DNA of 64,000 nt. It comes from an uncultured delta proteobacterium. Its GTDB lineage: Bacteria > Desulfobacterota > Zymogenia > Zymogenales > Zymogenaceae. The position numbers and the translations under genes were made by a program. The notes below the pieces were generated by a model that was not told the DNA's origin, did no database searches, and saw only the letters and a list, made by a program, of their open reading frames with translations. The DNA is taken from NCBI GenBank assembly GCA_963735595.1, contig CAVTLK010000001.1, forward strand, positions 928,001-992,000, written 5' to 3'. This document shows, piece after piece, positions 38,078 through 58,486 of the stretch; the first letter of the stretch is position 1; each line of letters opens with the position of its first letter.

Positions 38078-38464
38078 ATGAAAGATATCGTTAAGAATTG
38101 GATAGATTCGGCCACATATGATCTTGACACTGCCGAGCATCTATTCGAGAGCGGTAGGTACATCTATTGCGTTTTCTTTTGCCACCTTGCCCTCGAAAAG
38201 GTATTGAAGGCGGCCGTCGAGAAGACGACAAATAGCCATCCTCCTAAGACGCATGACCTGGAGTATTTGTTGGAGCTCTCCGGCATCGACATCGATGAGG
38301 AAAGGGAGGCGTTCCTCGGCGATATCAGCAACGTAAGCACGGCGACGCGATACCCTAACGACACCGAACGCTTAGTTAGGGAATACTCAAAAGATCGAAC
38401 AAAGAAGATCCTCACCCGAACAAAGGAGGTATTTCGGTGGATAGAGCAATTAATAAAATCGTAG
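38078..38464 (+). CDS. HEPN domain protein (toxin-like)
   Basis: W...A.YDL..AE.L...GRY...VFFCH.ALEK.LKA, KTHDL..L and TRYP. Confidence 0.88.
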   Translation: MKDIVKNWIDSATYDLDTAEHLFESGRYIYCVFFCHLALEKVLKAAVEKTTNSHPPKTHDLEYLLELSGIDIDEEREAFLGDISNVSTATRYPNDTERLVREYSKDRTKKILTRTKEVFRWIEQLIKS

Positions 38465-38754
38465 CCGAATACCGGGATCGGCTGGAGAAGAAAGGCATCG
38501 CCGTTAAGAAAATTATTCTGTACGGCTCGCAAGCCATTGGCACTACTCATAAAGACAGTGATATCGATCTTGCCGTTATCTCCGATGATTTCAAGGAAAT
38601 GGATCTCTTTGAGCGCTTGAGCTTCCTCGGGCGTATGCGCGTCGGTTTACGGAGACCGATGGAAATCATCGGCCTGACCGAGGAAGAATACGATCGTCCG
38701 CCGACGTCGTTCATCCGCGACGAGGTGAAGGCGAAGGGGATAGTTATTAGGTAG
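38437..38754 (+). CDS. Minimal nucleotidyltransferase (MNT) antitoxin-like
   Basis: ILYGSQAIG...DSDIDLAVIS (GSx10DxD). Overlaps HEPN. Confidence 0.9.
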   Translation: MDRAINKIVAEYRDRLEKKGIAVKKIILYGSQAIGTTHKDSDIDLAVISDDFKEMDLFERLSFLGRMRVGLRRPMEIIGLTEEEYDRPPTSFIRDEVKAKGIVIR

Positions 38755-40976: not shown

Positions 40977-41801
40977 TCAGTTAGTCCGCTTTTTCGCTTG
41001 CCTGTTCGGGTTCGTCCGCGCACACGGGACGGCCGTCTGGCACTTGCCGCACCCGCCGGCATAGATGTTGCCGTACTTCTGCGGGTATTCGGTAAGTATC
41101 TTTTCCGCGATGAAGTTCATACAGGTGATGTGGTCCTTCTTCTCGGCGGTGACGGCGCCGGCGGGGCACCGGCCGATGCAGTCTCCGCAGGTCCCATCGG
41201 CGTCGTAGATACAGTTTTCCATGAGCGAGGCGGCCGTCCGCGGCGTGTGCGAAAGCGGAAGGTCGCTGATAACCGAGCCGAAGCGCCCGGCGCAGCCCTT
41301 TTCGGTGATGAACGAATAGGAGAGGCAGAAAGTCCCCAATCCGGCGATATAGGCGGTGTGCCGCTCCGACCAGTTGCTGGTGGTGGGCAGCATCACGAAC
41401 CGGTCGGTGCGCGGGGGCGCCACCGCCCGGTGCCCGGCCTGCGTGATTGCGCCGGCCACGTGATCGCGCAGCGCGTTGTTAAATTCTTCGCCCCAGAAAC
41501 GCGCGAGGTACCATTCCTTTGACGGCATCCCCTCGACGCGGTTGCTTTCGACGATCTCCTTGCTGAACGGGAGAAAGTAGGAGACGACGCTACGCGCCCC
41601 CGGCAGCCACTCGTCGGGAGACTGGTGGTGCGGCCCGATAATCCCTTCCTTCTTGAGTTGGCCGTACATCGGGTCTCCGGCCGCCGCGAAGGCCACCAGC
41701 GGCTCCTCGTATATCCGAAGACCAGGGATCGCCGGGATGGCGTTCCTCGAATCGGCTGCCACAAACGCCGTAATCAATTCGCGAATCCGGCTATTGTCCA
41801 T
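40977..41801 (-). CDS. QueG/reductive-dehalogenase-like 2x[4Fe-4S] protein (copy 1)
   Basis: SNWSERH.AY.AGLG.F, G.AGRFGS, CGDCIGRCP and CGKCQTAVPC. Confidence 0.8.
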   Translation of the reverse strand: MDNSRIRELITAFVAADSRNAIPAIPGLRIYEEPLVAFAAAGDPMYGQLKKEGIIGPHHQSPDEWLPGARSVVSYFLPFSKEIVESNRVEGMPSKEWYLARFWGEEFNNALRDHVAGAITQAGHRAVAPPRTDRFVMLPTTSNWSERHTAYIAGLGTFCLSYSFITEKGCAGRFGSVISDLPLSHTPRTAASLMENCIYDADGTCGDCIGRCPAGAVTAEKKDHITCMNFIAEKILTEYPQKYGNIYAGGCGKCQTAVPCARTNPNRQAKKRTN

Positions 41802-41813
41802 GCGACTGTAACC

Positions 41814-42627
41814 TCACTTCTTTTTTCTGGGATTTAGGCGCGCGCACGGAACCGCCGTCTGGCACTTGCCGCAGCAGAGGGATCGTATCCCTCCGTATTT
41901 CTCCCGGTACAGGGGGACTACCCGCTCCCGCAGGAAGCTCAGGCAGGCGGCGTGGTCTTTTTTTTTCGGCGGTAATCGCGTTGACGGGGCAGCGGGTGAT
42001 ACAGACCCCGCAGCCGCCGTCGCCTTCGCCCAGGCAGTTTGCGCGAAGCGACAGGATCGTTCGCGGAGACGGCGGCAGGTCGAGGTCGGTGACGACCGAG
42101 CCGAACCGGCCGGCGCACCCCTTCTCGGTGATGAACGAATAGGAAAGGCCGAAGCTGCCCATCCCCGCGATATAGGCGGTGTGGCGCTCCGACCAGTTGC
42201 TGGTTCCGGGCTGCATGAGGAACCGGCCGTCCCGCATCGGGGCGACCGCCGCATGCCCTTCCCCTTTGATCTCATTTGCCACGTGGTCCCGAAGGGCATT
42301 GTTGAAGGTCTCGCCCCAGTGATAAGCGAGATACCACTCCCCCGAGGGCGGGCCCTCGGGCCGGTTGCTCTCCACGATGCGGTCGGTAAAGGGGAGAAAC
42401 CAGGCCACGACGCTTCGGGCGCCGGAAAGCCATTCGTCAGGTCCCCTATGGTAGGGCCCGATCACGCCGCTTTGGGAGAGCGCCGCGTACAGCCGGTCGT
42501 CTGCGGCGGCAAAGGCAACCAGCGGCTCCCTGAAGATCGGGAGGCCCGGGCTCTCAGGAATGGCATTGCCGTGATCGCCGGCCACGAACGCCCTGATAAG
42601 GTCAACAATCCGATCGCGTGTAATCAT
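41814..42627 (-). CDS. QueG/reductive-dehalogenase-like 2x[4Fe-4S] protein (copy 2; frameshift in the T-run near 41960)
   Basis: Same motifs. The C-terminal CCGKCQTAVPC is in the 41814-42299 frame. Confidence 0.78.
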
Positions 42628-42651
42628 CTCGCTTCCGGCCGTCGGCTGTTC

Positions 42652-43098
42652 TTACTTGGTCTCCTTGGTGACGATCAGGTTTTCCAATCCAAGCTCCTTG
42701 AGGATAACCGGGAACATCCCGAACGCGGGGCGCACCACGGGCAGCAGCTTCATCATGGCCGTTATCTTGCCGCCCTGCTTGACCTTACCGCGCGTGACGG
42801 CGGCCACCGGGTTTTCGAGGCCGTGCCAGAAGCTGTGCGAGAAATCGGCGGCCTGCTTGGACCAGACGTCTTCCTTCAGCTCGCAGGGGCCCAGGTAGTA
42901 GTTGCCGTGCATGCCTTCTTTTTTCGGCGGGTTCTTCAGGTCGATGGTGATCTCGGAATCGGGGTCGGTGTATATGAACCTGATGATGATGCCGGCCTTG
43001 CTCATCTTCGGCCCGATCTTGGGGTCGGTGAGGATTCGATTCATAAAGTAGCCGTAGATCTTGTAGAGGTCGTCGGCGTCTTTATAGTACTTTCCCAT
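42652..43098 (-). CDS. SCP2 sterol-carrier-like protein
   Basis: AD..HSFWHG..NPVAAVTRGKVK.GG....MKLLP pattern. Confidence 0.7.
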   Translation of the reverse strand: MGKYYKDADDLYKIYGYFMNRILTDPKIGPKMSKAGIIIRFIYTDPDSEITIDLKNPPKKEGMHGNYYLGPCELKEDVWSKQAADFSHSFWHGLENPVAAVTRGKVKQGGKITAMMKLLPVVRPAFGMFPVILKELGLENLIVTKETK

Positions 43099-43235
43099 GG
43101 GAGGCCTCCTTGATATTACGTTGTATCATAGTGGCCGGTATGCACCGGCGACCCAGCAAGCGGGCGGCATGAATTCCGCCCGTACGGGCCCTCATATAGC
43201 TATGCTTGAACCACCATACTGCCGGCGAACACGCT

Positions 43236-44402
43236 CTACTTGCCCTTCCGCTGGTCGAATCTCCTGCCGAACAGCAGGCTTGCCATCGTGATCCTGAGCA
43301 TCTGCACGGTGCCGCCTGCCACCCGCCAGGCCATTGCGTCACGCGCCATTCGCTCCACGGGGAATTCCGTCGAATAGCCGTACCCGCCGAATATCTGCAT
43401 CGCGGAGACCGCCACCTCAACGGCCATCTCGTTGGCGAAGCACTTGCCCATCGCCGCCTCATAGACCGAGGGAAAGCCCCTGCCCGCCCCGCACGCCGCG
43501 CGGTAAACCAACAGCCGCGCCGCGTCCAGCTTCATTGCCATATCGACGATTTTGAACTGGACGTCCTGGAACTCGCAGATAGGCCGCCCGAAGGCGCTGC
43601 GCTCCTGGGCGTATGCCTTGGCCGCCTCCAGCGCACCCCCCGCGGTGCCCAGGCACATGGCGGCGTTTCCGCACCGCTCCACGTCAAACGTCGACATGAG
43701 GTTGACGAACTCCCCCTCTTTGACGACGAGGTTCTCCTTGGGGACCTTGACGTCCTCGAAGATCAGGTCGCAGGACGGCATGGCCCGTAGCCCCATGAAG
43801 ACCTCCTGCTTCCCGAAGGAAAACCCGGGCATCCCGTTTTCCACCAGCAGCCCGCCGATCCCCTTATAGCCCGGGGTATCGCCGAGCCGGCAGTAGACCA
43901 TGTAGTGGCTGGCGTGCCCGCCGCCGGTGATAAACGTCTTCGTGCCGTTGAGCAGGTAGTGGTCGCCCTTGTCCACGGCCTTGGTGGTCAGCGCCGTCAG
44001 GTCGGAGCCGGCCTCCGGCTCCGTCATGCAGACGGAGACCGAACGCTCTCCCTTGCAGACTTTGGGGATGATCTCCTTTTTCTGCTTTTCCGACCCGTAC
44101 CGGTCGATGACCCGGACGGGGCCGACATTCGATTCAAAGACCGGCGCGGCGATCATCGGCGAGAACTTGGCCAGCTCCTCGACGGCCAGCACCGCGTTGA
44201 GGACGGGCTGCCCCCCGCCGCCGTTCTCCTCCGAAAGCGTCATGCCCAATAAACCCAGCTCGGCGTACTTGGCCATGAGGTGGTAGGGAAACTCCCCGGT
44301 AGCATCGATTTTTTTCGCCAGTTCCTTGAAGTTCTCCCGCTCCCCCATCGTCCTGAGCGTCTCGACGAGCATCTTTTGTTCGTCGGTAAGATTGAAATCC
44401 AT
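43236..44402 (-). CDS. Acyl-CoA dehydrogenase
   Basis: CMTEPEAGSD, NGTKTFIT, R..FGRPI..FQ, QIFGGYGY and AGGT. Confidence 0.92.
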   Translation of the reverse strand: MDFNLTDEQKMLVETLRTMGERENFKELAKKIDATGEFPYHLMAKYAELGLLGMTLSEENGGGGQPVLNAVLAVEELAKFSPMIAAPVFESNVGPVRVIDRYGSEKQKKEIIPKVCKGERSVSVCMTEPEAGSDLTALTTKAVDKGDHYLLNGTKTFITGGGHASHYMVYCRLGDTPGYKGIGGLLVENGMPGFSFGKQEVFMGLRAMPSCDLIFEDVKVPKENLVVKEGEFVNLMSTFDVERCGNAAMCLGTAGGALEAAKAYAQERSAFGRPICEFQDVQFKIVDMAMKLDAARLLVYRAACGAGRGFPSVYEAAMGKCFANEMAVEVAVSAMQIFGGYGYSTEFPVERMARDAMAWRVAGGTVQMLRITMASLLFGRRFDQRKGK

Positions 44403-44415
44403 GTTCCGTCCTTTC

Positions 44416-45784
44416 TCAAATATTTTTGGTGATCTGTGTGATATCCGTGACCGTTTCGAGCTTGAGTATTCCGTCGATAAGGGCGTTGAGCTTTTTCACG
44501 TCCCGCTTTCCGGCAAACAGGCGCACCTTTTTTGCCACGGCATCGCTTGTCATGGGGTCGCGCGGGTCGCCCGCGGGCATATCGACCTGCCTGGTGATCT
44601 TTTCGCCGGTCTTCAGGGTAATCTCGACGCGGCTGGCGGTCTTGCCGGGATAGAGCTTATTGAGCTCATCGTCGTAGTTGACCGTGACTTTTTTCGTAAA
44701 CTCGATCAGCGCCGGGTCCGAGAGCCGCTTTTCGGTAAGCTGGACCGGGCCGACCATGCCGTCGGCGATCGCGACCGACACGACGTACGGGATGGAGAAC
44801 TGGGCGTTGACGAAACTATCGTTGAGGACCACCGGTTTCCCGACAGCCAGTACCGCGATCCCGTAGGTGAAGACGTCGACCTTCTCCACGTCCTTCGGGC
44901 CGATTTTCTTTTCGGCCACGAGTTCGATCGTCGCCTGGGCCGACCCGTGCGTGTGCCGGCAGGCGGTATAGGGCTTGAAGTAGATATCGAGGATCGTGAG
45001 GCGTTCTCCCAGTTTGTCGGTGATCCGCTCGAACGCCGGGGGTTGGTCGGTGGTGATCTTGCAGAAACCGCCGTTAAGCTTGGAGCCCTCAAAGACGTTG
45101 GGCATCCCCGTGACGCCGGCGGCGGCCAATTCGGCCGCCAGGAGCCCGCTCTGCGCGGCCTTGCCACCCTGCACGACCTTGACCGTAAAGCCTCCCATGA
45201 GCTGCTCGGCCATGGACAGCGGAACCAGGTAGCCGGCGCAGCCCAGCGCCGAAAGCGTCGTCGCCTTATCCAGCCCCATGAGCTTTGCGGCCGCTATCGC
45301 CGCGCCGAAGGTGCCGGTAGTGCCGGTTGGCAGGAATCCCGAGAGTGTGTGCCGGGGATGGACGGATGCCGCCGCCCGGTCGGCCGCTTCGTAACCCGCG
45401 ACGACGGCAGCGATAACGTCCTTGCCGCCTTTTCCGTTTCTCTCGGCCAGCGCCAGGGCCGTCGGGATCACCGCGGTGCCGGGGTGGTTTCCGCCGAAGC
45501 GCAGGCCGTCCTGCGCCTCTATAGCCTCGGCCGTCACGCCGTTGAGAAACACGGCCTCGAGAATGGGCGCCGAAAACCCGCACCCGAGGCAGGTGACGGG
45601 TCCGCCTGCCGCCGAGCGACTTGACCGTCGAGACGATGCGGGCGACCGCGTCAAGCTCCAGCGATCCGTAGACATTGGCGACGTAGTCCAGGATGCAGAG
45701 CTTGGCCTTTTCAATAACGTCGGCGGACAGCATATCATAGGTGAGATCGTGACAGAAATCAGAGAGTATCTTTGAATAGTCCAT
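44416..45784 (-). CDS. MmgE/PrpD family protein (one frameshift near 45605)
   Basis: AKLCILD, NG...AIE.QDG...HPG, GYE, YFKPYTACRHTH, AQFSIPY and GDPRDPM. Confidence 0.88.
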
Positions 45785-45833
45785 AATCATTCCCCGTGAT
45801 TACTTCTATGAAAACGGAGTCTTCCTCGGACGT

Positions 45834-46634
45834 CTATACGTATCCCCGCTTCTCGTATATCTTTATCATCCGGTGGGGGTCGAGGATCTCCCGCATGACC
45901 CTGAGCTCCTCGGCCCGCGGCGGCTCGGTCTCGAAGACGTCGGGGGAGACCTTCAGGTCCCAGGGGGTGCTCTTCCTTATCTCCTCAACGGAGCTTCCCG
46001 GATGATACGAGGCAAGGTAGGCCTCCTTGGTCTTGTCGTCGAACCGCATGACCGCCTTGTTGGTGATGAGCGCCGTGGGGCCGGTGCCGGGGGGAAGACC
46101 CCATTTTTCCCTGGCCCCCGGGCCGTCGATGTAGCCGGGTGTCGTGATGAAATCGACCCGTTCGGAGAGCCTCCTGGTATCGTGGAGGGCAATGATGAGG
46201 ACCCGCTTGACGAGGGACCCTATCGGGTTTGCCCCGCCGCTGCCGGGCAGACGGTTCTTGGGGGCGGCGTAGTCGCCGATAACGGTGGTGTTGACGTTTC
46301 CGTACTTATCCACCTGGGAGCCCGCCAGGAATCCCACGTCCACCCAGCCCTTCTGGAGGAACATCCCCATGATATCGACGAGCCCGCCCACAAACGCGGC
46401 GCCGGGGTTGAGGCACGGATCGCCCACCGAGAGGGCTGGCCGGCGCGGCCGGGCGTCGTAAACGCCGGATTCCTGCATCATCACGGCGTTCGGCGCGTGG
46501 GTGTGCTTGGCGATATTGGCCGACATCGTCGGGAAGCCGGTCCCGACGATGACGACGTCGCTGTCGGCAATCTCCCGTGCTCCGCAGCAGGCCATCAATT
46601 CGGGCTTGATGTAGTCGTTGGGATGCGATGACAT
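45834..46634 (-). CDS. Family I CoA-transferase beta subunit (GctB-like)
   Basis: VGTGFP, QESG (catalytic Glu), QVDKYGNVNTT, RLPGSGGAN and VDFITTPG. Confidence 0.9.
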   Translation of the reverse strand: MSSHPNDYIKPELMACCGAREIADSDVVIVGTGFPTMSANIAKHTHAPNAVMMQESGVYDARPRRPALSVGDPCLNPGAAFVGGLVDIMGMFLQKGWVDVGFLAGSQVDKYGNVNTTVIGDYAAPKNRLPGSGGANPIGSLVKRVLIIALHDTRRLSERVDFITTPGYIDGPGAREKWGLPPGTGPTALITNKAVMRFDDKTKEAYLASYHPGSSVEEIRKSTPWDLKVSPDVFETEPPRAEELRVMREILDPHRMIKIYEKRGYV

Positions 46635-46691
46635 AGGAATAGACCCCGCGAGAAATAATCAGATTTCCGCCGGTGCGGCGGCAGTAACGAC

Positions 46692-47627
46692 CTAATATTC
46701 GTAGCTTACCGGGTAGCTGAAGCCGAAGCGCGCCTGGAGCCGGCGGAATGCCTCCCAGCCGAACTTCTTGATGTAATGGTCTATATAGTCGGCCCGGTCC
46801 TTGGTCCCGTATACCCATTCGTCGAGGAATTCCTTGAACCCCTGCTCGGTGTCGGACGCCTTCTGGTAGAGCGAGCCGAAGACGAAATCGACGTCGTAAA
46901 AACCGGGTGTGTAGCCCGGATGGGACCCGTACGGCTCCTCCACCACGGCCGATACCTTGAAATCGGGAACGATCGTGCGCGAGGGGTCAAGGCCGATCAC
47001 CTCCCGGGAGACGATCCGCTCCGCGGAGACGATGACCTTCTTGCTGGCGTTGGCGCCCCACTGGCAGTCCCCGCCGATCCCCCATATCTGGGCGTTCCCG
47101 TTTTCGTCGGACTGCTGCACGTGGATGATGGCTACGTCGGGGGTGAGCGCCGGCACCAGCAGAACGGGGCTCTTGTCGAAGGGGCTCTCGATCATCTTGT
47201 ATTTGTTATCCCCCATGAACCCCTTCACGTTCATGAGGTCGGTGCCCACCATGTCCTTAACCGGCACAAACGGCATGCCCATGGCGCCGGACATGAGCAT
47301 CAGCGGCAGTGAGAGATTGGAGTATTCTTCCAGCTCGATCTTGTGGGGGATTGACTTCTCGATTGACCTGCGGTAGCAGCGCCCCAGCCCGTAGACCCCC
47401 AGAGACAGGAACGTCGCGATGAACCGTTTCACGCAGCCGGCCCCGATCAGCATATCAAAATCGTCGGCGGCGTTGCTCCGGGTGATGGTGAGGTCCTTTT
47501 TACCCTGGCGGATGATCTCGTGGACGGCCGAAAAGGGGGTGCGGCAGATATAGCCGCCGATATAGACAAAATCGCCGTCGGTCACGTGGGCGGCGATTGC
47601 CTCTTTCATGGTGGTGAGTTTACTCAT
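46692..47627 (-). CDS. Family I CoA-transferase alpha subunit (GctA-like)
   Basis: EAI..HV.DGD...GG, HEIIRQ, GAMGMPF.P, PDVAIIHVQ..D..GNA and SAERIV. Confidence 0.9.
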   Translation of the reverse strand: MSKLTTMKEAIAAHVTDGDFVYIGGYICRTPFSAVHEIIRQGKKDLTITRSNAADDFDMLIGAGCVKRFIATFLSLGVYGLGRCYRRSIEKSIPHKIELEEYSNLSLPLMLMSGAMGMPFVPVKDMVGTDLMNVKGFMGDNKYKMIESPFDKSPVLLVPALTPDVAIIHVQQSDENGNAQIWGIGGDCQWGANASKKVIVSAERIVSREVIGLDPSRTIVPDFKVSAVVEEPYGSHPGYTPGFYDVDFVFGSLYQKASDTEQGFKEFLDEWVYGTKDRADYIDHYIKKFGWEAFRRLQARFGFSYPVSYEY

Positions 47628-47664
47628 GTGCTACCCAAGAGAAAGGTGTGCTATTCTCAATAAA

Positions 47665-47867
47665 GGCGTCCCCGAAGGGGCCGCCTTCCGGATTGCCGCG
47701 TCATCATCACCCCGCGAAGCAGGCTTCGCTCACGACCCCGATAGGAGAGGCGGTCTCCTCGCAATGACGACCTTTAATCGCGGCCCTTTGGGCCGCACCG
47801 AGATTGCCGCGTCGCTTCGCTCCTCGCAATGACGACCTTTTATCCGCGGCCCTGACGGGCCGCCTTC
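47665..47867. repeat. Tandem REP-like palindromic units (GATTGCCGCGTC...CTCCTCGCAATGAC) alternating with GC hairpins
   Basis: Compact copy at about 47800-47833 and an expanded copy at 47691-47768. Each is followed by GACCTTT..CGCGGCCC..GGGCCGC. Confidence 0.7.
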
Positions 47868-47869
47868 TT

Positions 47870-50251
47870 CTAGATTTCGTACATGGTCCGGCAGATGATC
47901 TCGTCCTGAGCCGTATCCGAAAGCCCCGTAAAGAGGACCGAATAGCCGCTGATCCTGACCACGAGGTCTTTATGCTTTTCCGGCTCCTTCTGTGCCGCCT
48001 TCAGGACATCGGTGTCGACCATGTTGAACTGCACCTGCATGCCCCCCTTGTCGAAGTAGGTCTTGATGAAGGCAAGCAGGTTCTCCGGCCTGATCGACTT
48101 TCCGGGGAAGCGCAGGTTGAGGTTTGCCCCGTTGTGGAGCCTGGCCAGGGGGAGCTTGACCACGGAGTTTGCCACGGCGGTGGGCCCGTTCATGGCGTTG
48201 CCGGTGGTCGGCGTCAGCCCGTTGCCCAGGATATCGCCGGAGCTGCGGCCGTCGGGTGTCGCGGCGGTAAACGATCCCATCGCCAGGTGGAACCCGACCG
48301 AGAATATCCCCGGCCAGAACGAGCCGCCGCGGTAATTCTTGTGTTTTCCCAGCTCGTCGCAGAAGCTGTCGACGACCCACGCGGCCATCGCGTCCACCTC
48401 GTCGACGTCGTTGCCGTATTTGGGGATCTTCGTCAGGAAATAGGTCCGCTTGTCCTCGGCGTCCGTCCAGTCGTCGGAGAGATGCCCGACAAGCTCTCCG
48501 ATCGTCATGACCTTATCCTCGAAGACCGCCTTCTTGACGCCATACAGGCTGTCGGCGACGTTGGCAAAACCCATCTGCTGGACGCCGGTGGAGTTATAGA
48601 CGGCGCCGCCGGCCGTGGCGTCCTTTCCCTTTTCGAGGCATCCGCCGATCAGCGCCGAGGCGAAGGGAGAAGGAACGAGCTCGGCGACGGCCTGATCCAT
48701 GCACGCCATCCCCCGGACAACCTGTTTGATGAAGTGAGACTGCTGGGCGGCGTAGGCCTTCTTGACGTCCTCGAAAGACGTAAATTCCGCCGGGTCGCCC
48801 GTTTCGAGGCCCGACTGATAGCCAAAGGTGTTGTCGATCCCGTTGGAGAGCGCCAGTTCCATGCACTTGATCCCGTTGAACTGAACCGCGAAGGTGGAGC
48901 CGTAGGTCTTGCCCTGGGCGTTGGGCTCCAGGCAGCCCACCGGCCCGTAGTCACGGGCATCGGCGATCGTGTGGCCGCCGGCCGTCAGGGCTTTAACGAC
49001 TGCCTCGTCGTTGAAGAAGTGCATCAGGACCCCTTCCTTGGCGTAGCCGACCGCCCGCATGAAGAAGTCGCGGGGCGTCTTTTCGGAGATCCTGACCCCG
49101 AAGTTGGGCTGGACCGTCCTGATATCGGCGTAGGCATCCAGGCCGATATAGGTCATCTCCGTGACGGCGTCGTTGCCCTTCTCGTCGATCCCTCCGACGA
49201 CGACGTTCTGGGTCGTCTTCCCCTCGGTACCCTCGCCGCCGGGGATAAACGTTTCTTCAAGGACATTCCATATTTCGCACATCTTGAGGAACATGAGCGA
49301 CAGGAGCTCCTTGGCTCCGTCATAGGTGATCCTTCCCTCCTTCTTGTCTGCCTCATAGTAGGGAGAGAGGATCCGGTCGATGCGCCCCAATGAAATCGAG
49401 TTTCCGCCCGACTCGATCTGGGAGATCAGGTGAACGAAATAGACCGATTGGACGGCCTCACGGTAGCTCCGGGCGGGGTGCTCGGGGACGCGGGCGCAGA
49501 CCCGGGCGATCTCGGCAAGCTCCGCCTTGCGGGCCGGGTCTTTTTCACTTTCGGCCAGGCGGGATGCCTCCAGAGCGTAGCGGTTGGCAAACCTGATCGC
49601 GGCCTCGAGCGACCGGATAACGGCTTCGTAAAAAAGCCCCGCATCGCCCTTCTTCGGGGCGGCGGGTAAGGCCGCGAGTTTCCCCTGGGCCTCCTTGATA
49701 ATCCCTCTGAGGCCGACCTTCAGCAGCTTTTCGTGATCCATCGTAAAATGGCCGACGCCGTAGGTGATCTCCAGCATCATCGTGAAGATATATTTATCCA
49801 TGTCGTCGGTGACGTCTGCAGGAAGCAGCTCGGTGAGGCGCTCTTCCACCGTCTTGCCCCGCCAGAAGGGGAGGATCTCATCGGTGAGTTCCTTTTGTTC
49901 GGCCTCGGTAATGAGCGCCCGCTGGATAACCCGCTGATTAAAGCCTTCGAGGTCCCCCTCGATCCACTGGGACTTATTCTCGGGGAAGAGCGGCGCACCC
50001 TTTTTCTTCTCCGTCCGTGACCCGACGATCAGCTCATCGTCCCGGATGACCACGCTGATGTTATCGAGGATTTCCGCCAGCGCAAGGCTTATCCTTGTCA
50101 GGGAGGGCTCGGCCCAGTGTTTCTTCATGGATGCCGTAAGGTAGCGCGCCCTTTGGACGCTTACCTCCTGCGGGGCATTGACGATCGCTTCCCTCAGTTT
50201 CCAGACCCGGGAAGTCGGGGCTTTTTGCGCGTTGGTCTCTTGGGATAACAT
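47870..50251 (-). CDS. Glycyl-radical enzyme (PFL superfamily, eliminase-like, unknown substrate)
   Basis: I..DELIVG, GVGH, GCLEP Cys loop, PKYGND and C-terminal LVVRISGYS glycyl motif. AAGGAGG RBS before ATG 50251. Confidence 0.92.
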   Translation of the reverse strand: MLSQETNAQKAPTSRVWKLREAIVNAPQEVSVQRARYLTASMKKHWAEPSLTRISLALAEILDNISVVIRDDELIVGSRTEKKKGAPLFPENKSQWIEGDLEGFNQRVIQRALITEAEQKELTDEILPFWRGKTVEERLTELLPADVTDDMDKYIFTMMLEITYGVGHFTMDHEKLLKVGLRGIIKEAQGKLAALPAAPKKGDAGLFYEAVIRSLEAAIRFANRYALEASRLAESEKDPARKAELAEIARVCARVPEHPARSYREAVQSVYFVHLISQIESGGNSISLGRIDRILSPYYEADKKEGRITYDGAKELLSLMFLKMCEIWNVLEETFIPGGEGTEGKTTQNVVVGGIDEKGNDAVTEMTYIGLDAYADIRTVQPNFGVRISEKTPRDFFMRAVGYAKEGVLMHFFNDEAVVKALTAGGHTIADARDYGPVGCLEPNAQGKTYGSTFAVQFNGIKCMELALSNGIDNTFGYQSGLETGDPAEFTSFEDVKKAYAAQQSHFIKQVVRGMACMDQAVAELVPSPFASALIGGCLEKGKDATAGGAVYNSTGVQQMGFANVADSLYGVKKAVFEDKVMTIGELVGHLSDDWTDAEDKRTYFLTKIPKYGNDVDEVDAMAAWVVDSFCDELGKHKNYRGGSFWPGIFSVGFHLAMGSFTAATPDGRSSGDILGNGLTPTTGNAMNGPTAVANSVVKLPLARLHNGANLNLRFPGKSIRPENLLAFIKTYFDKGGMQVQFNMVDTDVLKAAQKEPEKHKDLVVRISGYSVLFTGLSDTAQDEIICRTMYEI

Positions 50252-50345
50252 AGCGGCCTCCTTAGCTGCTTGCGTTTGCTCCCTCATCAAAGATGAGTGT
50301 TATACTATACAATTATCCCACCTGTTTGAGTAACTGGCAACTGTT

Positions 50346-51176
50346 TTATACCTTGATCTTCATGTAACCTACCAGTATAGAATCCTTGATGCGCTTCGGC
50401 AGGAATCGGTTCAGCTTCATCAGGAACGAGTCGGCGAACAGGAGCTGGTTGTAGAACTTGGGCCGATCTTTCTTGAGGATATTCACGATGGTACGGGCGG
50501 CCGCCTCCGGCGTAGGGGCTGACTTGATGAGCTCGTTGTCCCGATCGATGAACCGCTTGACTCGATCGCGATAGGGCGATTTTTCCGGGGGGAGTTTGTG
50601 GATCTTGGCGGCGAACGTGGTGGAAACCTGGGCCGGCTCGATGATGGCGACCCTGATGCCGAAGGGTTTGACCTCGTATTCCATCGACTCGATGAACCCC
50701 GTAATGGCGAACTTGGAGGCCGTGTAGATCGACTCGAACGGAAACGGTATGCGGCCGACGAGCGACGACATGGCGATGAGCTTGCCGCCACCGGCCTTTC
50801 TCATCGACGGGATGAAGGCCTGGAAGATGGCCATCGCCCCGATGACGTTGATCTCGAGGCACTTGAGTGCCTTTTCGAGGTCGATCTCCTCAAAGGGACC
50901 GAAGAAGCCGATCCCGACGTTGGAGAGCACCGTATCGACCGTCCCGTATTTCTTGAGGACGTCGTCCCGGAACTTCAGGATGCCCTTTCGGTTGGTGACG
51001 TCCAGCGCGATCAGGTGGTGATCCCCGCCGCCTGCTTTGAGTTCCTTCTTGAGCGATTCGATGGCGGTTGCGTTCATGTCAAACCCGGCGACGGAATATC
51101 CGTCGGCCGCCATGATCTTGGCAACTTGCCTGCCCATTCCTTCCCCGAGGCCGGTGATGACGATCGTCTTTTTCAT
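50346..51176 (-). CDS. Classical short-chain dehydrogenase/reductase
   Basis: ITGLGEGMG, NVG, SS and YTASK (YxxxK). Confidence 0.9.
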   Translation of the reverse strand: MKKTIVITGLGEGMGRQVAKIMAADGYSVAGFDMNATAIESLKKELKAGGGDHHLIALDVTNRKGILKFRDDVLKKYGTVDTVLSNVGIGFFGPFEEIDLEKALKCLEINVIGAMAIFQAFIPSMRKAGGGKLIAMSSLVGRIPFPFESIYTASKFAITGFIESMEYEVKPFGIRVAIIEPAQVSTTFAAKIHKLPPEKSPYRDRVKRFIDRDNELIKSAPTPEAAARTIVNILKKDRPKFYNQLLFADSFLMKLNRFLPKRIKDSILVGYMKIKV

Positions 51177-51281
51177 AATAGCTCCATTATTATATACGGT
51201 TTATTACACTCAGCTCCAAATCCCGTTCCTATGTCGCGCCGCGGCGGTCGGATAATAGATCACCCGCGGCACTATACGCCG

Positions 51282-52283
51282 TTATCGCATCTCCAGCTTC
51301 CCGTCCCGATAGAGCCGTGCTATCTCTTCCATCGACTTCTCGAAATCGGGATAGAGAAACGTGAAGCCGCTCTTCTTGAGCGCGGCGTTGTCCACCACGT
51401 AGTCGTGATAGAGATACTGCGACCGCGTCGTACTCGAGGTCCGGGTACCTTCCCCTTCCGGGCGGACACGAAGCCGTCGGCCTTGGCGGCGATCTTGACG
51501 AGCCACAACGGCAGGTGAAGCGTGGGCGGCTTTTTCCCGAAGGCCAGGGCCGCCAGGCGTCAGGGCCCGCTCGATGGTCGGTTTGGAATCGTCGACGATG
51601 TTGTAGATCTTGCCGGTGTTGCCCGAAAGCTCCGACAGGTGCACCACCGCCCGCGCCACGTCCTCCGCACGGACGTTGGCGAGAAGCTGCTTGCCGCTGC
51701 CGGGGATCGCCGTGATCGAGGTGGGCCGGGAAAAGGCCTTGCCCGCCCCGTCCGTACAGCGGGGGCCGTAGACGGTGCAGGGGCGGCAGAGGATCGGCGT
51801 CAAGCCCCTTTTCGAGCGCCGCAAACAGCATATTCTCGCCGTCCCTCTTGCTCCTGCCGTAGTCGTCCTGCGGGTTGCGCGGAGAGTCTTCCCGGAAGGG
51901 GGAGCCGGTATACGGCCCGTAGACGCTGGTGGAGGTCACGTGGACGAACCGCTTGACCCCCGCCTTGATGGCCGCCTCCGTGATCAGGGCAACCCCCGCC
52001 ACGTTGGTGGGATAGAGGCGCTCATAGGGCGTGGAGAAATTGCAGATCGCCCCCATGTGGATGACCCGATCGACCTCTCCCTCAAACAGCGGCGGCACCG
52101 TCTCGGGCTTCGTCAGGTCGGCGGCCACGTACTGGACCCCCAGCCGGTCGAAAAACGACGTGTCTTTTCTGGGCCGGGCGGTGGCCCTGACCTTGACGCC
52201 CGATTTGGCCAGGTGTTCGACCAGGTGGCTCCCCATGAAAGCCGGCGGCCCCGGTAACCAACGTGATCCCGGTAGAATTTCAC
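51282..52283 (-). CDS. Extended SDR / NAD-dependent epimerase-dehydratase (3beta-HSD-like; several frameshifts)
   Basis: VTGAAGFMG, TSTSVYG, YGRSK, RPCTVYGP and VRAEDVARA. The GTG overlaps the PadR stop. Confidence 0.82.
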
Positions 52284-52883
52284 GTCGTTCCTCCTGTGGT
52301 TGCGACCGCTTTAACGTTCTCCCGGTCTATCGTATCCCCGCTGCTGCGGGATTTCCGGGAGGATATCTCGGCCTGAATCTCGACCTTGACGCGCTCAAGC
52401 CAGGCCAGCATCATCTCGTTGAGCGAAATACCCAGTTCTCTCATAAGACGGACGTTGGTGTTCTCGTTCTGTTTATGGTCGTATCGGTGGCGCCGTGAGG
52501 AGAGATCCGCGTGATAGATCCGTATCTGCTCCTCGATGATTTCGAGGGACCGTTCTTTATCCCCGAAGGAGAAAGAAGACGAACTTGAGCAGAAAAGGAT
52601 CGCGGATGAGCATTCCCCGCTCGGGCGCCGTATTGAGCCACTCCGCAAAGGCCTCTTCACCCTTCTCGGTGATGGAATAGAGCTTCTTGTCGGGGACGTT
52701 TTTCTGGGCCACGTCGACCTTCGTCACCAGCCCCTCCTGCTCGAGCTGCTTGAGGTTCGGGTAGATCTGACCGTAGTTGATGGACCACATGAAGCCGAAT
52801 TCATTCTCGATGACTTCCTTGATACGGTAGCCGTGCATATCTTTGTAATGAAGCAGTCCCAGGATGGCGTATTTCACGGACAT
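52280..52883 (-). CDS. PadR family regulator with Vir_act_alpha_C-like C-terminus (frameshift near 52570)
   Basis: AILGLL...MHGY.IK...WS...GQIYP.L..LE..G, KKLYSIT.KG and ...LAWL. Confidence 0.9.
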
Positions 52884-52990
52884 GGTGTTTCCTCGCGGGT
52901 AGTGGGAAAAGGACTCGATCGGTCGGCGGGAAAAGGGAGCATCGGATCGCCGGAGGACCGATACGACGTTACGGGGAAGGCCGATGAATT

Positions 52991-53030
52991 TATGTCGAAA
53001 GTATATATATCCATAGTATATATGTCAAGG
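52991..53030 (-). promoter_or_regulatory. Near-consensus sigma70 promoter embedded in 15-bp tandem operator-like repeats
   Basis: Minus strand TTGACA (53028-53023), N17, TATACT (53005-53000). Plus-strand repeats tatgtcgaaagtata / tatatccatagtata / tatgtcaagg. Confidence 0.75.
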
Positions 53031-57472: not shown

Positions 57473-58486
57473 ATGAAAAAGGTAGCGATTAACGGGTTGG
57501 GAAGAATCGGACGACTCATCCTGCGCAATTTCATCGAAACGCCCCCGGGCGCCACAGGTGAGATAGAAATAGTGGCAGCAAATGACCTTACCCCGATGGA
57601 CGACCTGGCTTACCTCATGCGCTACGACTCGGTCCACGGGAGGGCCCCCTTCGAGGTGAAATTCGGCGAAGGTTCCCTCGATCTCGGGGGAAAACGTATC
57701 GCCGTCACCCACGAGAAGGACCCCGCGAACCTCCCCTGGAAAGCGCTCGGGATAGACACCGTCATGGAGTGCACGGGAGCCTTCCGCGGGCGCGCCGATG
57801 CCGGCAAACATATCGACGCCGGGGCGTCCCATGTCATCATCAGCGCCCCGTCCGAGGATGTCGACGCCACCTTCATCGTCGGCGTCAACGAAAAGACCTA
57901 CGATCCCGCCAAGCACCGCGTCGTCTCCAATGCCTCCTGCACCACCAACTCGCTCGCCCCGACGGTCAAGGTCATGAACGACACCTTCGGCGTGGAGTAC
58001 CTGTTTGTAACCACCGTCCACGCCTATACGTCAAGCCAGTCCCTCGTGGACAAGGCCGCCCGAAAGATGCGCCGGGGCAGGGCCGCGGCCGTCTCGTTCA
58101 TCCCCACATCCACCGGCGCCGCCGACGCCACCGCCCTGGTCATCCCGGAGCTGAAGGGGAGGATGAACGCCATCGCCGTGCGGGCGCCCGTGCCGGACGG
58201 GTCGCTCACCGATATCGTCGCCGTCCTGAAAAAGGACGTCACCGTCGAGACCCTGAACGGGGCGTTCAAGGCGGCGGCCGACGGTCCTTTGAAGGGGATT
58301 CTGGCCTATAGCGAGGAAGAGCTGGTGTCGGCCGATATCATCGGCTGCCCCCACTCGGGCGTCGTAGACGGACTGTCCACGATGGTTATCAAGGACCGGT
58401 TTGTCAAGGTCTTCGTCTGGTACGACAACGAATACGGCTATTCCCACCGGATGCTCGACCTGGCGCGTCACATGGCGCGTGCATAG
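57473..58486 (+). CDS. gap: Type I glyceraldehyde-3-phosphate dehydrogenase
   Basis: INGLGRIGR, YDSVHG, SNASCTTN, TSTGAA and WYDNEYGY. Confidence 0.95.
   Translation: MKKVAINGLGRIGRLILRNFIETPPGATGEIEIVAANDLTPMDDLAYLMRYDSVHGRAPFEVKFGEGSLDLGGKRIAVTHEKDPANLPWKALGIDTVMECTGAFRGRADAGKHIDAGASHVIISAPSEDVDATFIVGVNEKTYDPAKHRVVSNASCTTNSLAPTVKVMNDTFGVEYLFVTTVHAYTSSQSLVDKAARKMRRGRAAAVSFIPTSTGAADATALVIPELKGRMNAIAVRAPVPDGSLTDIVAVLKKDVTVETLNGAFKAAADGPLKGILAYSEEELVSADIIGCPHSGVVDGLSTMVIKDRFVKVFVWYDNEYGYSHRMLDLARHMARA

Follow-up and report, generated by a model that had tools for sequence, protein, structure and literature searches.

A glycyl radical enzyme operon conserved across phyla, from an uncultured Zymogenaceae bacterium, and its candidate role in the anaerobic catabolism of a lipophilic diol

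The stretch of DNA analysed here (the window; 64,000 nucleotides, positions 928,001 to 992,000 of contig CAVTLK010000001.1, assembly GCA_963735595.1, an uncultured member of the Zymogenaceae, Desulfobacterota) carries an operon built around an uncharacterised glycyl radical enzyme (GRE). Its core is a unit of nine genes, encoding a PadR-family regulator, an extended and a classical short-chain dehydrogenase/reductase (SDR), the GRE, the A and B subunits of a CoA-transferase, an MmgE/PrpD-family protein (PrpD-like protein), an acyl-CoA dehydrogenase (ACAD) and an SCP2-like protein, in an order that recurs in several phyla. The operon may serve the anaerobic catabolism of a lipophilic 3-substituted propane-1,2-diol, from which the GRE would remove the C2 hydroxyl to yield an aldehyde: for this general route, the chances of being right or wrong seem to us about equal, and the best-fitting identity of the substrate, a monoalkyl glycerol ether, is a tentative one.

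The GTDB scan returned 61 loci, of which 57 form one clade (55-98% identity) and four distant GREs were set aside; with the best 80 of 212 matches from a metagenome scan, the combined set holds 137 loci, which are mutually related, so that the neighbourhood counts given here are not independent. Among named relatives, a Candidatus Zymogenaceae metagenome-assembled genome (MAG) comes nearest, at 89%, and host labels comprise Desulfobacterota, Spirochaetota, Syntrophomonadaceae, Bacteriovoracaceae, Binatia and Fibrobacteres, with Dehalococcoidia among the protein matches. The neighbourhood described in a first-pass annotation of this DNA is conserved across several phyla in these 137 loci, as a unit of nine genes and not of eleven: all eleven are indeed minus-strand genes and follow the order that it gave, with the short gaps or overlaps it reported (intergenic distances of 13-242 bp and a single 11-bp overlap), but the two QueG-like genes at the end are present in only 5/137 loci, all close kin, and are rejected as part of the core. 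Upstream of the GRE, where at least 2.3 kb of sequence is available (n=85), an SDR is found in 81 loci and both SDRs in 75. Downstream, in the 70 loci with at least 5.5 kb (long loci), the CoA-transferase, PrpD and ACAD genes accompany the GRE in 55, the first two being always together (55/70) and never apart. An acyl-CoA ligase with an ACAD replaces the CoA-transferase/PrpD pair in 6 of the 70, at about four separate tree positions (by inspection of the tree, without a formal clade test), SCP2 is present in 62, and an aldehyde oxidoreductase (AOR) or aldehyde dehydrogenase (ALDH) lies somewhere in the locus in 36. Genes inserted in the operon or adjoining it encode, among other products, a paraoxonase-like esterase (18/137), an iron-containing alcohol dehydrogenase (Fe-ADH) with an ALDH, an ACAD of the long-chain type, an alkylsulfatase and a phospholipase C. 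In one wetland RNA run, relatives' contigs were represented over all 30 bins, at a small word share and with DNA carry-over possible.

Several loci depart from this layout. In several spirochaete and Desulfobacterota loci (L032, L039, L052, L070 and L076), genes of the BadF/BadG activator and 2-hydroxyacyl-CoA dehydratase types are found upstream of padR. One lineage (L126, L130, L132, L138, L147, L153 and L160) has no padR in the locus, SCP2 and a periplasmic-binding lipoprotein preceding the extended SDR, and four clade members (L044, L045, L077 and L123) have no companion gene detected nearby. SCP2 and ALDH form a single 644-aa open reading frame (ORF) at L054:12156-14087, which may be an assembly slip; the two are separate genes 20 bp apart in L053.

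The GRE (PF02901, 661 bits; PF01228) scores barely above the cut-off of the PFL2/glycerol dehydratase subfamily (TIGR01774, 678.6 vs 678.2), and falls below the equivalog cut-offs of NCBIfam for HpfG, the (2S)-3-sulfopropanediol dehydratase (567/1000, the best of them), HypD (510/1100), HpsG (485/1000), CutC (464/1050), PflD, IAD, HPAD and PFL. Its best PDB matches are the B12-independent glycerol dehydratase (GD) of C. butyricum (1r8w, 585 bits) and the GRE 1,2-propanediol dehydratase (PD; 5i2a, GrpM, 517 bits), with IslA/IseG, HpyG, HpzG, HplG, BSS/MASS and archaeal PFL2 at 257-463 bits (phmmer); over aligned references, identity reaches 39.6% with GD, 37.9% with PD and 31-35% with PflD, HypD, YbiW and CutC. 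In the tree, which left out 16 partial or frameshifted loci, one clade (support 1.0) holds all 122 full-length members and is separate from GD/PD; for IslA, HpsG, HpfG, BSS and the decarboxylases, the comparison is one of scores. Among the families tested, the GRE therefore stands outside the characterised ones, as the first-pass annotation had supposed. Cys440, Glu442 and His168 are invariant in 121/121 full-length members, and Gly769 is present in 119/121. In a 2026 review (PMC13450708), the CxE motif marks GRE eliminases and isomerases, His164 is the acid for water loss in GD, and Cys, Glu, Gly and His are given as the water-eliminating set. By these residues, the GRE is assigned to the CxE 1,2-eliminase/isomerase class.

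Likeness to GD and PD extends to the equivalents of His164, Ser282, Cys433, Glu435 and Gly763, all kept, and to a Val at the S642 position as in PD. In contrast, the polar GD residues N156, D447, Y640 and S642 are replaced by L160, F454, F650 and V652, and the bulky F333 and Y339 by the small G339 and T347, substitutions that are fixed in 120-121 of the 121 members; H281 is replaced by N284. We take N156, D447, Y640, S642, F333 and Y339 to line the GD pocket; likewise, the GRE has N284, T347, F454 and F650 where His281, Tyr/Phe339, Asp447 and Tyr640 presumably make up the pocket set of glycerol and propanediol dehydratases. Because the pocket has turned apolar, has opened and is near-invariant, it suggests that the clade has one function and a larger, greasier substrate; the earlier guess of a lipophilic substrate is in line with this pocket and with SCP2 in 62/70 long loci. 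The deepest branch (L077, 55%), one of the loci devoid of companion genes, retains most pocket residues. It is very improbable indeed that the GRE is an ordinary glycerol/propanediol dehydratase feeding a 3-hydroxypropionate/acrylate route to propionate: GD and PD are its closest references, and genes for glycerol kinase and a dehydrogenase precede its partner GRE (see below) in one lineage, yet the clade lies apart from GD/PD, H281, Y339, D447 and Y640 are all replaced, and SCP2 and two SDRs would have no role for achiral glycerol.

Family-I CoA-transferases of the GctAB type have two subunits, with the catalytic Glu in the ESG motif of the beta subunit. The CoA-transferase of the operon is assigned to this type by sequence, as its best PDB match is glutaconate CoA-transferase (1poi) and the ESG Glu is aligned; scores are far lower against 6con/6co6, which we take to be the steroid IpdAB enzymes. 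The PrpD-like protein can be compared with IDS epimerase, whose residues are H85, D88, H99, H150, K198 and K266, with Y145 added in two-base epimerases (PMC12290011). It carries E86, E89, H100, L151, K202 and K270 at these positions, and T146 for Y145, and has thus kept the His base and two Lys and lost the Tyr base and both carboxylate-binding His. Since Tyr145, His85 and His150 are lost while the His base and Lys are kept, these residues fit a one-base addition or elimination on a monocarboxylate. The strict pairing with the CoA-transferase would fit action on the free acid that the transferase releases or consumes; the PrpD-family isomerase tested was active on the free acid only (PMC12290011).

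The ACAD first matches 3-sulfinopropanoyl-CoA desulfinase (355 vs 600) and then acryloyl-CoA reductase, both below cut-off, and its relatives at 50% lie within aerobic dioxygenase-type clusters, with no substrate assigned. The hallmarks of the desulfinase are a Gln that replaces the catalytic Glu, and a sulfinate-binding Arg. E90 and the GG motif are common to the ACAD and an annotated desulfinase; since the ACAD has Glu242 instead of the Gln and lacks the Arg, it is likely a true dehydrogenase. Ala362-Gly363 stands in place of the usual Tyr-Glu and, with the helix-G Glu, presumably resembles isovaleryl-CoA dehydrogenase.

Could the substrate then be a steroid, a bile acid, or an isoprenoid or alkane diol, with the PrpD-like protein acting as an epimerase or double-bond isomerase before a stereoselective CoA-transferase? 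The SCP2 fold, weak matches of an operon MFS transporter to the bile-salt MFS (168 vs a cut-off of 400) and of the ligase to steroid-24-oyl-CoA synthetase (344 vs 750), and the presence, among the best PrpD plasmid matches, of Sphingobium 'Tom' strains (33%), which we take to be steroid-alkaloid degraders, would agree with it, as would the methylsuccinate cluster of Pseudomonas, a precedent for a CoA-transferase, a PrpD-family isomerase and an ACAD together (PMC12290011). Against it, the second base Tyr145 of IDS epimerase has been replaced, as have its His85 and His150, the CoA-transferase, of the Gct type and with its catalytic Glu, scores far lower against 6con/6co6 (the IpdAB enzymes), and no steroid ring genes are recognised among the annotated recurrent neighbours. 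We regard this as clearly unlikely, and the steroid or bile-acid guess of the first-pass annotation finds little support: it rested on generic family names, and the nearest SCP2 relatives belong to alcohol, aldehyde and fatty-acid cassettes.

This context comes from the 148-aa protein, which has no Pfam match and is assigned to the SCP2 sterol/lipid carrier fold from its structure model, with lipid binding predicted: the top Foldseek matches are SCP2 domains (E 4e-4, TM about 0.5; model pLDDT 68; Atlas 0.94). Its closest annotated relatives (about 33%, on plasmids, Rhodococcus) have an ALDH on one side and a fatty-acid CoA ligase on the other. Elsewhere in the genome, a separate cassette (G000:C5:326.5-331 kb; L096:7521-11976) holds a TetR regulator, an Fe-ADH, an SCP2 paralogue and an AOR that is 55% identical to AORs inside related operons, and is likely, to judge by sequence, the aldehyde oxidase that serves the operon in trans. 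Because SCP2 relatives adjoin an ALDH and the genome has this Fe-ADH/SCP2/AOR cassette, the GRE product suggested by this context is an aldehyde. The first-pass annotation had proposed a carboxylate as GRE substrate; as an aldehyde-oxidising enzyme accompanies the operon in 36/70 long loci, the acid is better placed after the GRE step, and a neutral diol is therefore more likely. As for the SDRs, a rule on basic residues past beta2 would make the extended one NADP-type, and a rule on D33 the classical one NAD-type. The classical SDR has no PDB match at 1e-45, and an SDR match to 3-ketodihydrosphingosine reductase stays under threshold (158 vs 400). Annotated plasmid relatives of the SDRs, CoA-transferase, PrpD-like protein and ligase reach only 27-51% and none is informative.

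GREs need an activase, and one lies in only 3 of the 137 loci, at the operon end in two (L054 and L067) and belonging to another GRE in the third. A survey of 47 hosts (46 of the 57 GTDB loci, and the source genome) detected an activase elsewhere in the genome in 47/47, over the cut-off in 46. The only one detected in the source genome is frameshifted and lies beside a second GRE (G000:C2:564.2-567.5 kb; L098). In 8 of 12 regions examined, the activase shares a cassette with this second GRE, which is uncharacterised and of the CxE type, and with a PNPOx-like gene; a GntR/FadR regulator often precedes the cassette (L205-L209, L211 and L215-L236 besides L098). The second GRE, whose pocket is likewise apolar, is found in 38/47 hosts and, in a sample of 221 genomes of the phylum, in 14/16 operon carriers (7/8 outside the source family) vs 11/205 non-carriers; the cassette also occurs without the operon. 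Since both in-operon activases nest within the second-cassette activases (support 0.995), apart from those of GD, CutC, PflD and YbiW, and given this co-occurrence, the two GREs likely share an activase. In one Syntrophaceae lineage (L208:8784-11499), the genes for glycerol kinase and glycerol-3-phosphate dehydrogenase stand directly before the second GRE cassette. Two more GRE paralogues of the source genome (G000:C5:862-864 kb and C5:37-39.6 kb) are both frameshifted, with no activase detected adjoining them.

The simplest route that uses every core gene, to which we attach roughly even confidence, leads from the diol to an aldehyde, an acid, a CoA ester, an enoyl-CoA, and a free enoate that is hydrated. 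The SDRs, with their opposite predicted cofactors, would interconvert C2 epimers or reduce a ketol, and the GRE, activated in trans, would convert the diol into 3-X-propanal via Cys440, Glu442 and His168. The SCP2 protein would ferry this greasy aldehyde to AOR or ALDH, and the resulting acid would be CoA-activated by the GctAB-like transferase, or by the ligase in the variant operons, before the ACAD turns the CoA ester into 3-X-acryloyl-CoA. The transferase would then recycle CoA from 3-X-acryloyl-CoA, and the PrpD-like enzyme may hydrate the free enoate by a one-base mechanism; if X is an alkoxy group, a fatty alcohol and malonate semialdehyde would be released. A monoalkyl glycerol ether fits best because it offers a chiral terminal diol and a long tail and needs an ACAD after activation, and it would account for the neighbouring genes for esterase, phospholipase, alkylsulfatase, Fe-ADH and long-chain ACAD. 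A wider proposal, which we consider doubtful, is that the operon and the second GRE cassette would together achieve an O2-independent cleavage of the ether bonds of alkyl glycerol ether lipids, the two GREs funnelling mono- and diethers to 3-alkoxypropanal and the ACAD/PrpD module freeing the fatty or isoprenoid alcohol. Literature searches, largely without subscription journals, found no publication on the operon itself, none that concerns the clade to judge by titles and the openings of abstracts, and nothing on anaerobic GRE cleavage of alkyl glyceryl ethers or on biodegradation of monoalkyl glycerol ethers.

Several observations weigh against this diol route or its ether substrate. The loss of the H281 and D447 equivalents means that diol binding differs from that of GD. 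CoA activation and ACAD are both missing in 9/70 long loci, and AOR/ALDH in 34/70, the window included, where the oxidation must then take place in trans. The Fe-ADH, the clearest sign of a freed alcohol, is present in only 5/137 loci and is common in dehydratase operons anyway. As for the ACAD, the acryloyl-CoA reductase model also scores high on unrelated ACADs of the genome, which makes this a weak match, and the ACAD motif would also suit beta-methyl-branched substrates. Finally, the named carriers are all MAGs.

An unlikely alternative is that the GRE is a lyase which directly attacks an ether or amine group of a lipid backbone, either by C2 abstraction on an alkylglycerol to give hydroxyacetone and a fatty alcohol, or by deamination of a sphingoid base; the freed chain would next pass through the SDRs, AOR, CoA-transferase and ACAD, for example from phytanol to phytanoyl-CoA. 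The likeness of the ACAD (Ala-Gly and helix-G Glu) to isovaleryl-CoA dehydrogenase would suit such a chain, as would the Fe-ADH inserts of L070 and L072 and the SDR match to 3-ketodihydrosphingosine reductase. YbiW and PflD, which have the same CxE motif and a His at the His164 position too, cleave ring ethers (PMC13450708). However, an ordinary freed fatty chain would not call for a dedicated CoA-transferase/PrpD/ACAD module conserved this strongly, the SDR match is a generic one, and a sphingoid base would yield a 3-hydroxy acid, for which the ACAD is bypassed. It is quite improbable that the GRE is a beta-aryl-ether lyase acting on lignin dimers or aryl-glycerols, with a product that would be oxidised, then dehydrated by the PrpD-like protein to give a hydroxycinnamate, activated with CoA and finally reduced by the ACAD. 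PadR regulators include phenolic-acid sensors, an arylesterase-family gene is among the neighbours, caffeyl-CoA reductase CarC is among the top structure matches of the ACAD, and corrinoid and URO-D-type genes follow the ACAD in two loci; yet CarC is equalled in score by butyryl-CoA dehydrogenases, SCP2 has an aliphatic context, and the ring-cleavage marker TIGR03200 is found in 2 of the 47 host genomes (MAGs, with completeness shown for one), over the cut-off in one.

At the regulatory level, the promoter upstream of padR matches the sigma70 consensus at 11/12 positions, and is overlapped by a TATATA-spacer-TATATA repeat that lies 5' of padR in 45/52 loci (30 shuffles: mean 0.27, maximum 2). 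This conserved repeat backs the PadR control assumed from the start, and the operon is likely PadR-repressed. The box has nine strict sites in the genome, ahead of the operon, a PadR paralogue, acyl-CoA genes, a thiolase/OB-fold operon and unrelated genes; as similar boxes precede other genes, the paralogue included, binding of the operon PadR to the repeat can only be inferred, and the box cannot define its regulon. Behind one such box (G000:C1:719.2-722.9 kb; L193:2256-5914), two SCP-x-type thiolases (best family PRK08313, below cut-off) are flanked by two small ORFs, OB-fold-like by eye, a layout reminiscent of sterol side-chain aldolase genes.

The features of the operon are listed in Table 1, and Pfam confirms the PadR, epimerase/3Beta_HSD-like SDR, adh_short SDR, PFL-like and Gly_radical, two CoA_trans, MmgE/PrpD and ACAD assignments; an intact relative's PadR has PadR and Vir_act_alpha_C domains. 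The QueG-like proteins score 41.6 and 22.1 bits against TIGR00276 (cut-off 200), too low for an assignment as epoxyqueuosine reductases.

Table 1. Features of the GRE operon and its promoter region, in window positions.
Feature	Position	Strand	Remarks
Putative PadR operator and sigma70-type promoter (TTGACA-17-TATACT)	53000..53028	-	inverted repeat TATATA-spacer-TATATA at ~53002-53023 overlaps promoter
PadR-family repressor, ~184 aa if intact	52330..52883 (3' end approximate)	-	PF03551; frameshift near 52571
Extended SDR, 331 aa if intact	51282..52283	-	YxxxK retained; basic residues past beta2; several frameshifts
Classical SDR, 276 aa	50346..51176	-	S138/Y151/K155 and D33 invariant
GRE, 793 aa	47870..50251	-	C440-L-E442 loop, G769, H168; uncharacterised eliminase-type clade
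Family-I CoA-transferase alpha subunit, GctA-like	46692..47627	-	PF01144; best PDB match 1poi_A, E 4e-53
Family-I CoA-transferase beta subunit, GctB-like	45834..46634	-	Glu55 in ESG motif; best PDB match 1poi_B, E 2e-58
MmgE/PrpD-family protein, 455 aa if intact	44416..45784	-	frameshift near 45610
ACAD, 388 aa	43236..44402	-	Glu242 on helix G; Ala362-Gly363
Stand-alone SCP2-fold protein, 148 aa	42652..43098	-	82% mean column identity, 16 homologues
QueG-like Fe-S protein 1, local add-on	41791..42627	-	weak TIGR00276 match; frameshift near 41958
QueG-like Fe-S protein 2, local add-on	40977..41801	-	weak TIGR00276 match

Four window genes are frameshifted (padR, extended SDR, PrpD and first QueG-like gene). 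These frameshifts are likely assembly errors, because the extra bases at ~52571, 52336, 52275, 52237, 51796, 51559, 51446, 51421 and 41958 are absent from close relatives' contigs (independent runs), the PrpD break is absent in relatives L024 and L025, and intact copies occur in L024 and L026. The GRE most likely starts at ATG 50251, since 793 aa is the length in most homologues. A 35-bp repeated element (47800-47834) lies between the GRE and CoA-transferase genes, has 14 copies in the genome (at most five mismatches), and shows very high depth in metagenome contigs. Read by eye, the region is flanked by a pair of small HEPN and nucleotidyltransferase-like ORFs and by a GAPDH-like gene (38078-38754; 57473-58486).

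How does this operon relate to known systems? The GRE is predicted to work like GD or HpfG, yet belongs to neither. In contrast to GD/PD operons, its activase is usually not adjacent, and SCP2, the SDR pair and the acyl-CoA module are found instead; the recurrent neighbours include no microcompartment genes and no recognised sulfonate genes. HpfG converts a 3-substituted propanediol into a 3-substituted propanal (PMC13450708), which is the type of reaction proposed here; the pocket of the operon GRE is apolar instead. The itaconate-methylsuccinate cluster of Pseudomonas and Cupriavidus has adjoining CoA-transferase, MmgE/PrpD isomerase and ACAD genes as in the operon, but no GRE, and the characterised dicarboxylate enzymes of the MmgE/PrpD family share the Tyr base and the two carboxylate-binding His absent here (PMC12290011). 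Actinobacterial cassettes of ADH, R2lox, ALDH, SCP2, fatty-acid CoA ligase and mce genes place SCP2 between ALDH and ligase, in aerobic hosts and without a GRE. The 2026 review catalogues six C-O eliminases, with glycerol, propanediol, sulfonate diol and hydroxyproline substrates, and lists whole GRE clades as untested (PMC13450708); the words 'ether' and 'steroid' are absent from its text. This work contributes the exchange of the transferase for a ligase, the residue pattern of the PrpD-like protein, the operator, and the connection with the activase of the second GRE.

Since the clade is widespread, its pocket near-invariant and its modular gene set complete, and since an operator and an activase candidate come with it, the system is directly testable. 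If the proposed reading is true, the operon would show a new way in which lipids are broken down anaerobically and, for ether lipids, would explain how compounds that persist as membrane lipids and as biomarkers in sediments can be degraded in the absence of oxygen. Failing that, a new radical reaction on a hydrophobic substrate and a new MmgE/PrpD activity on a monocarboxylate would still be likely gains.

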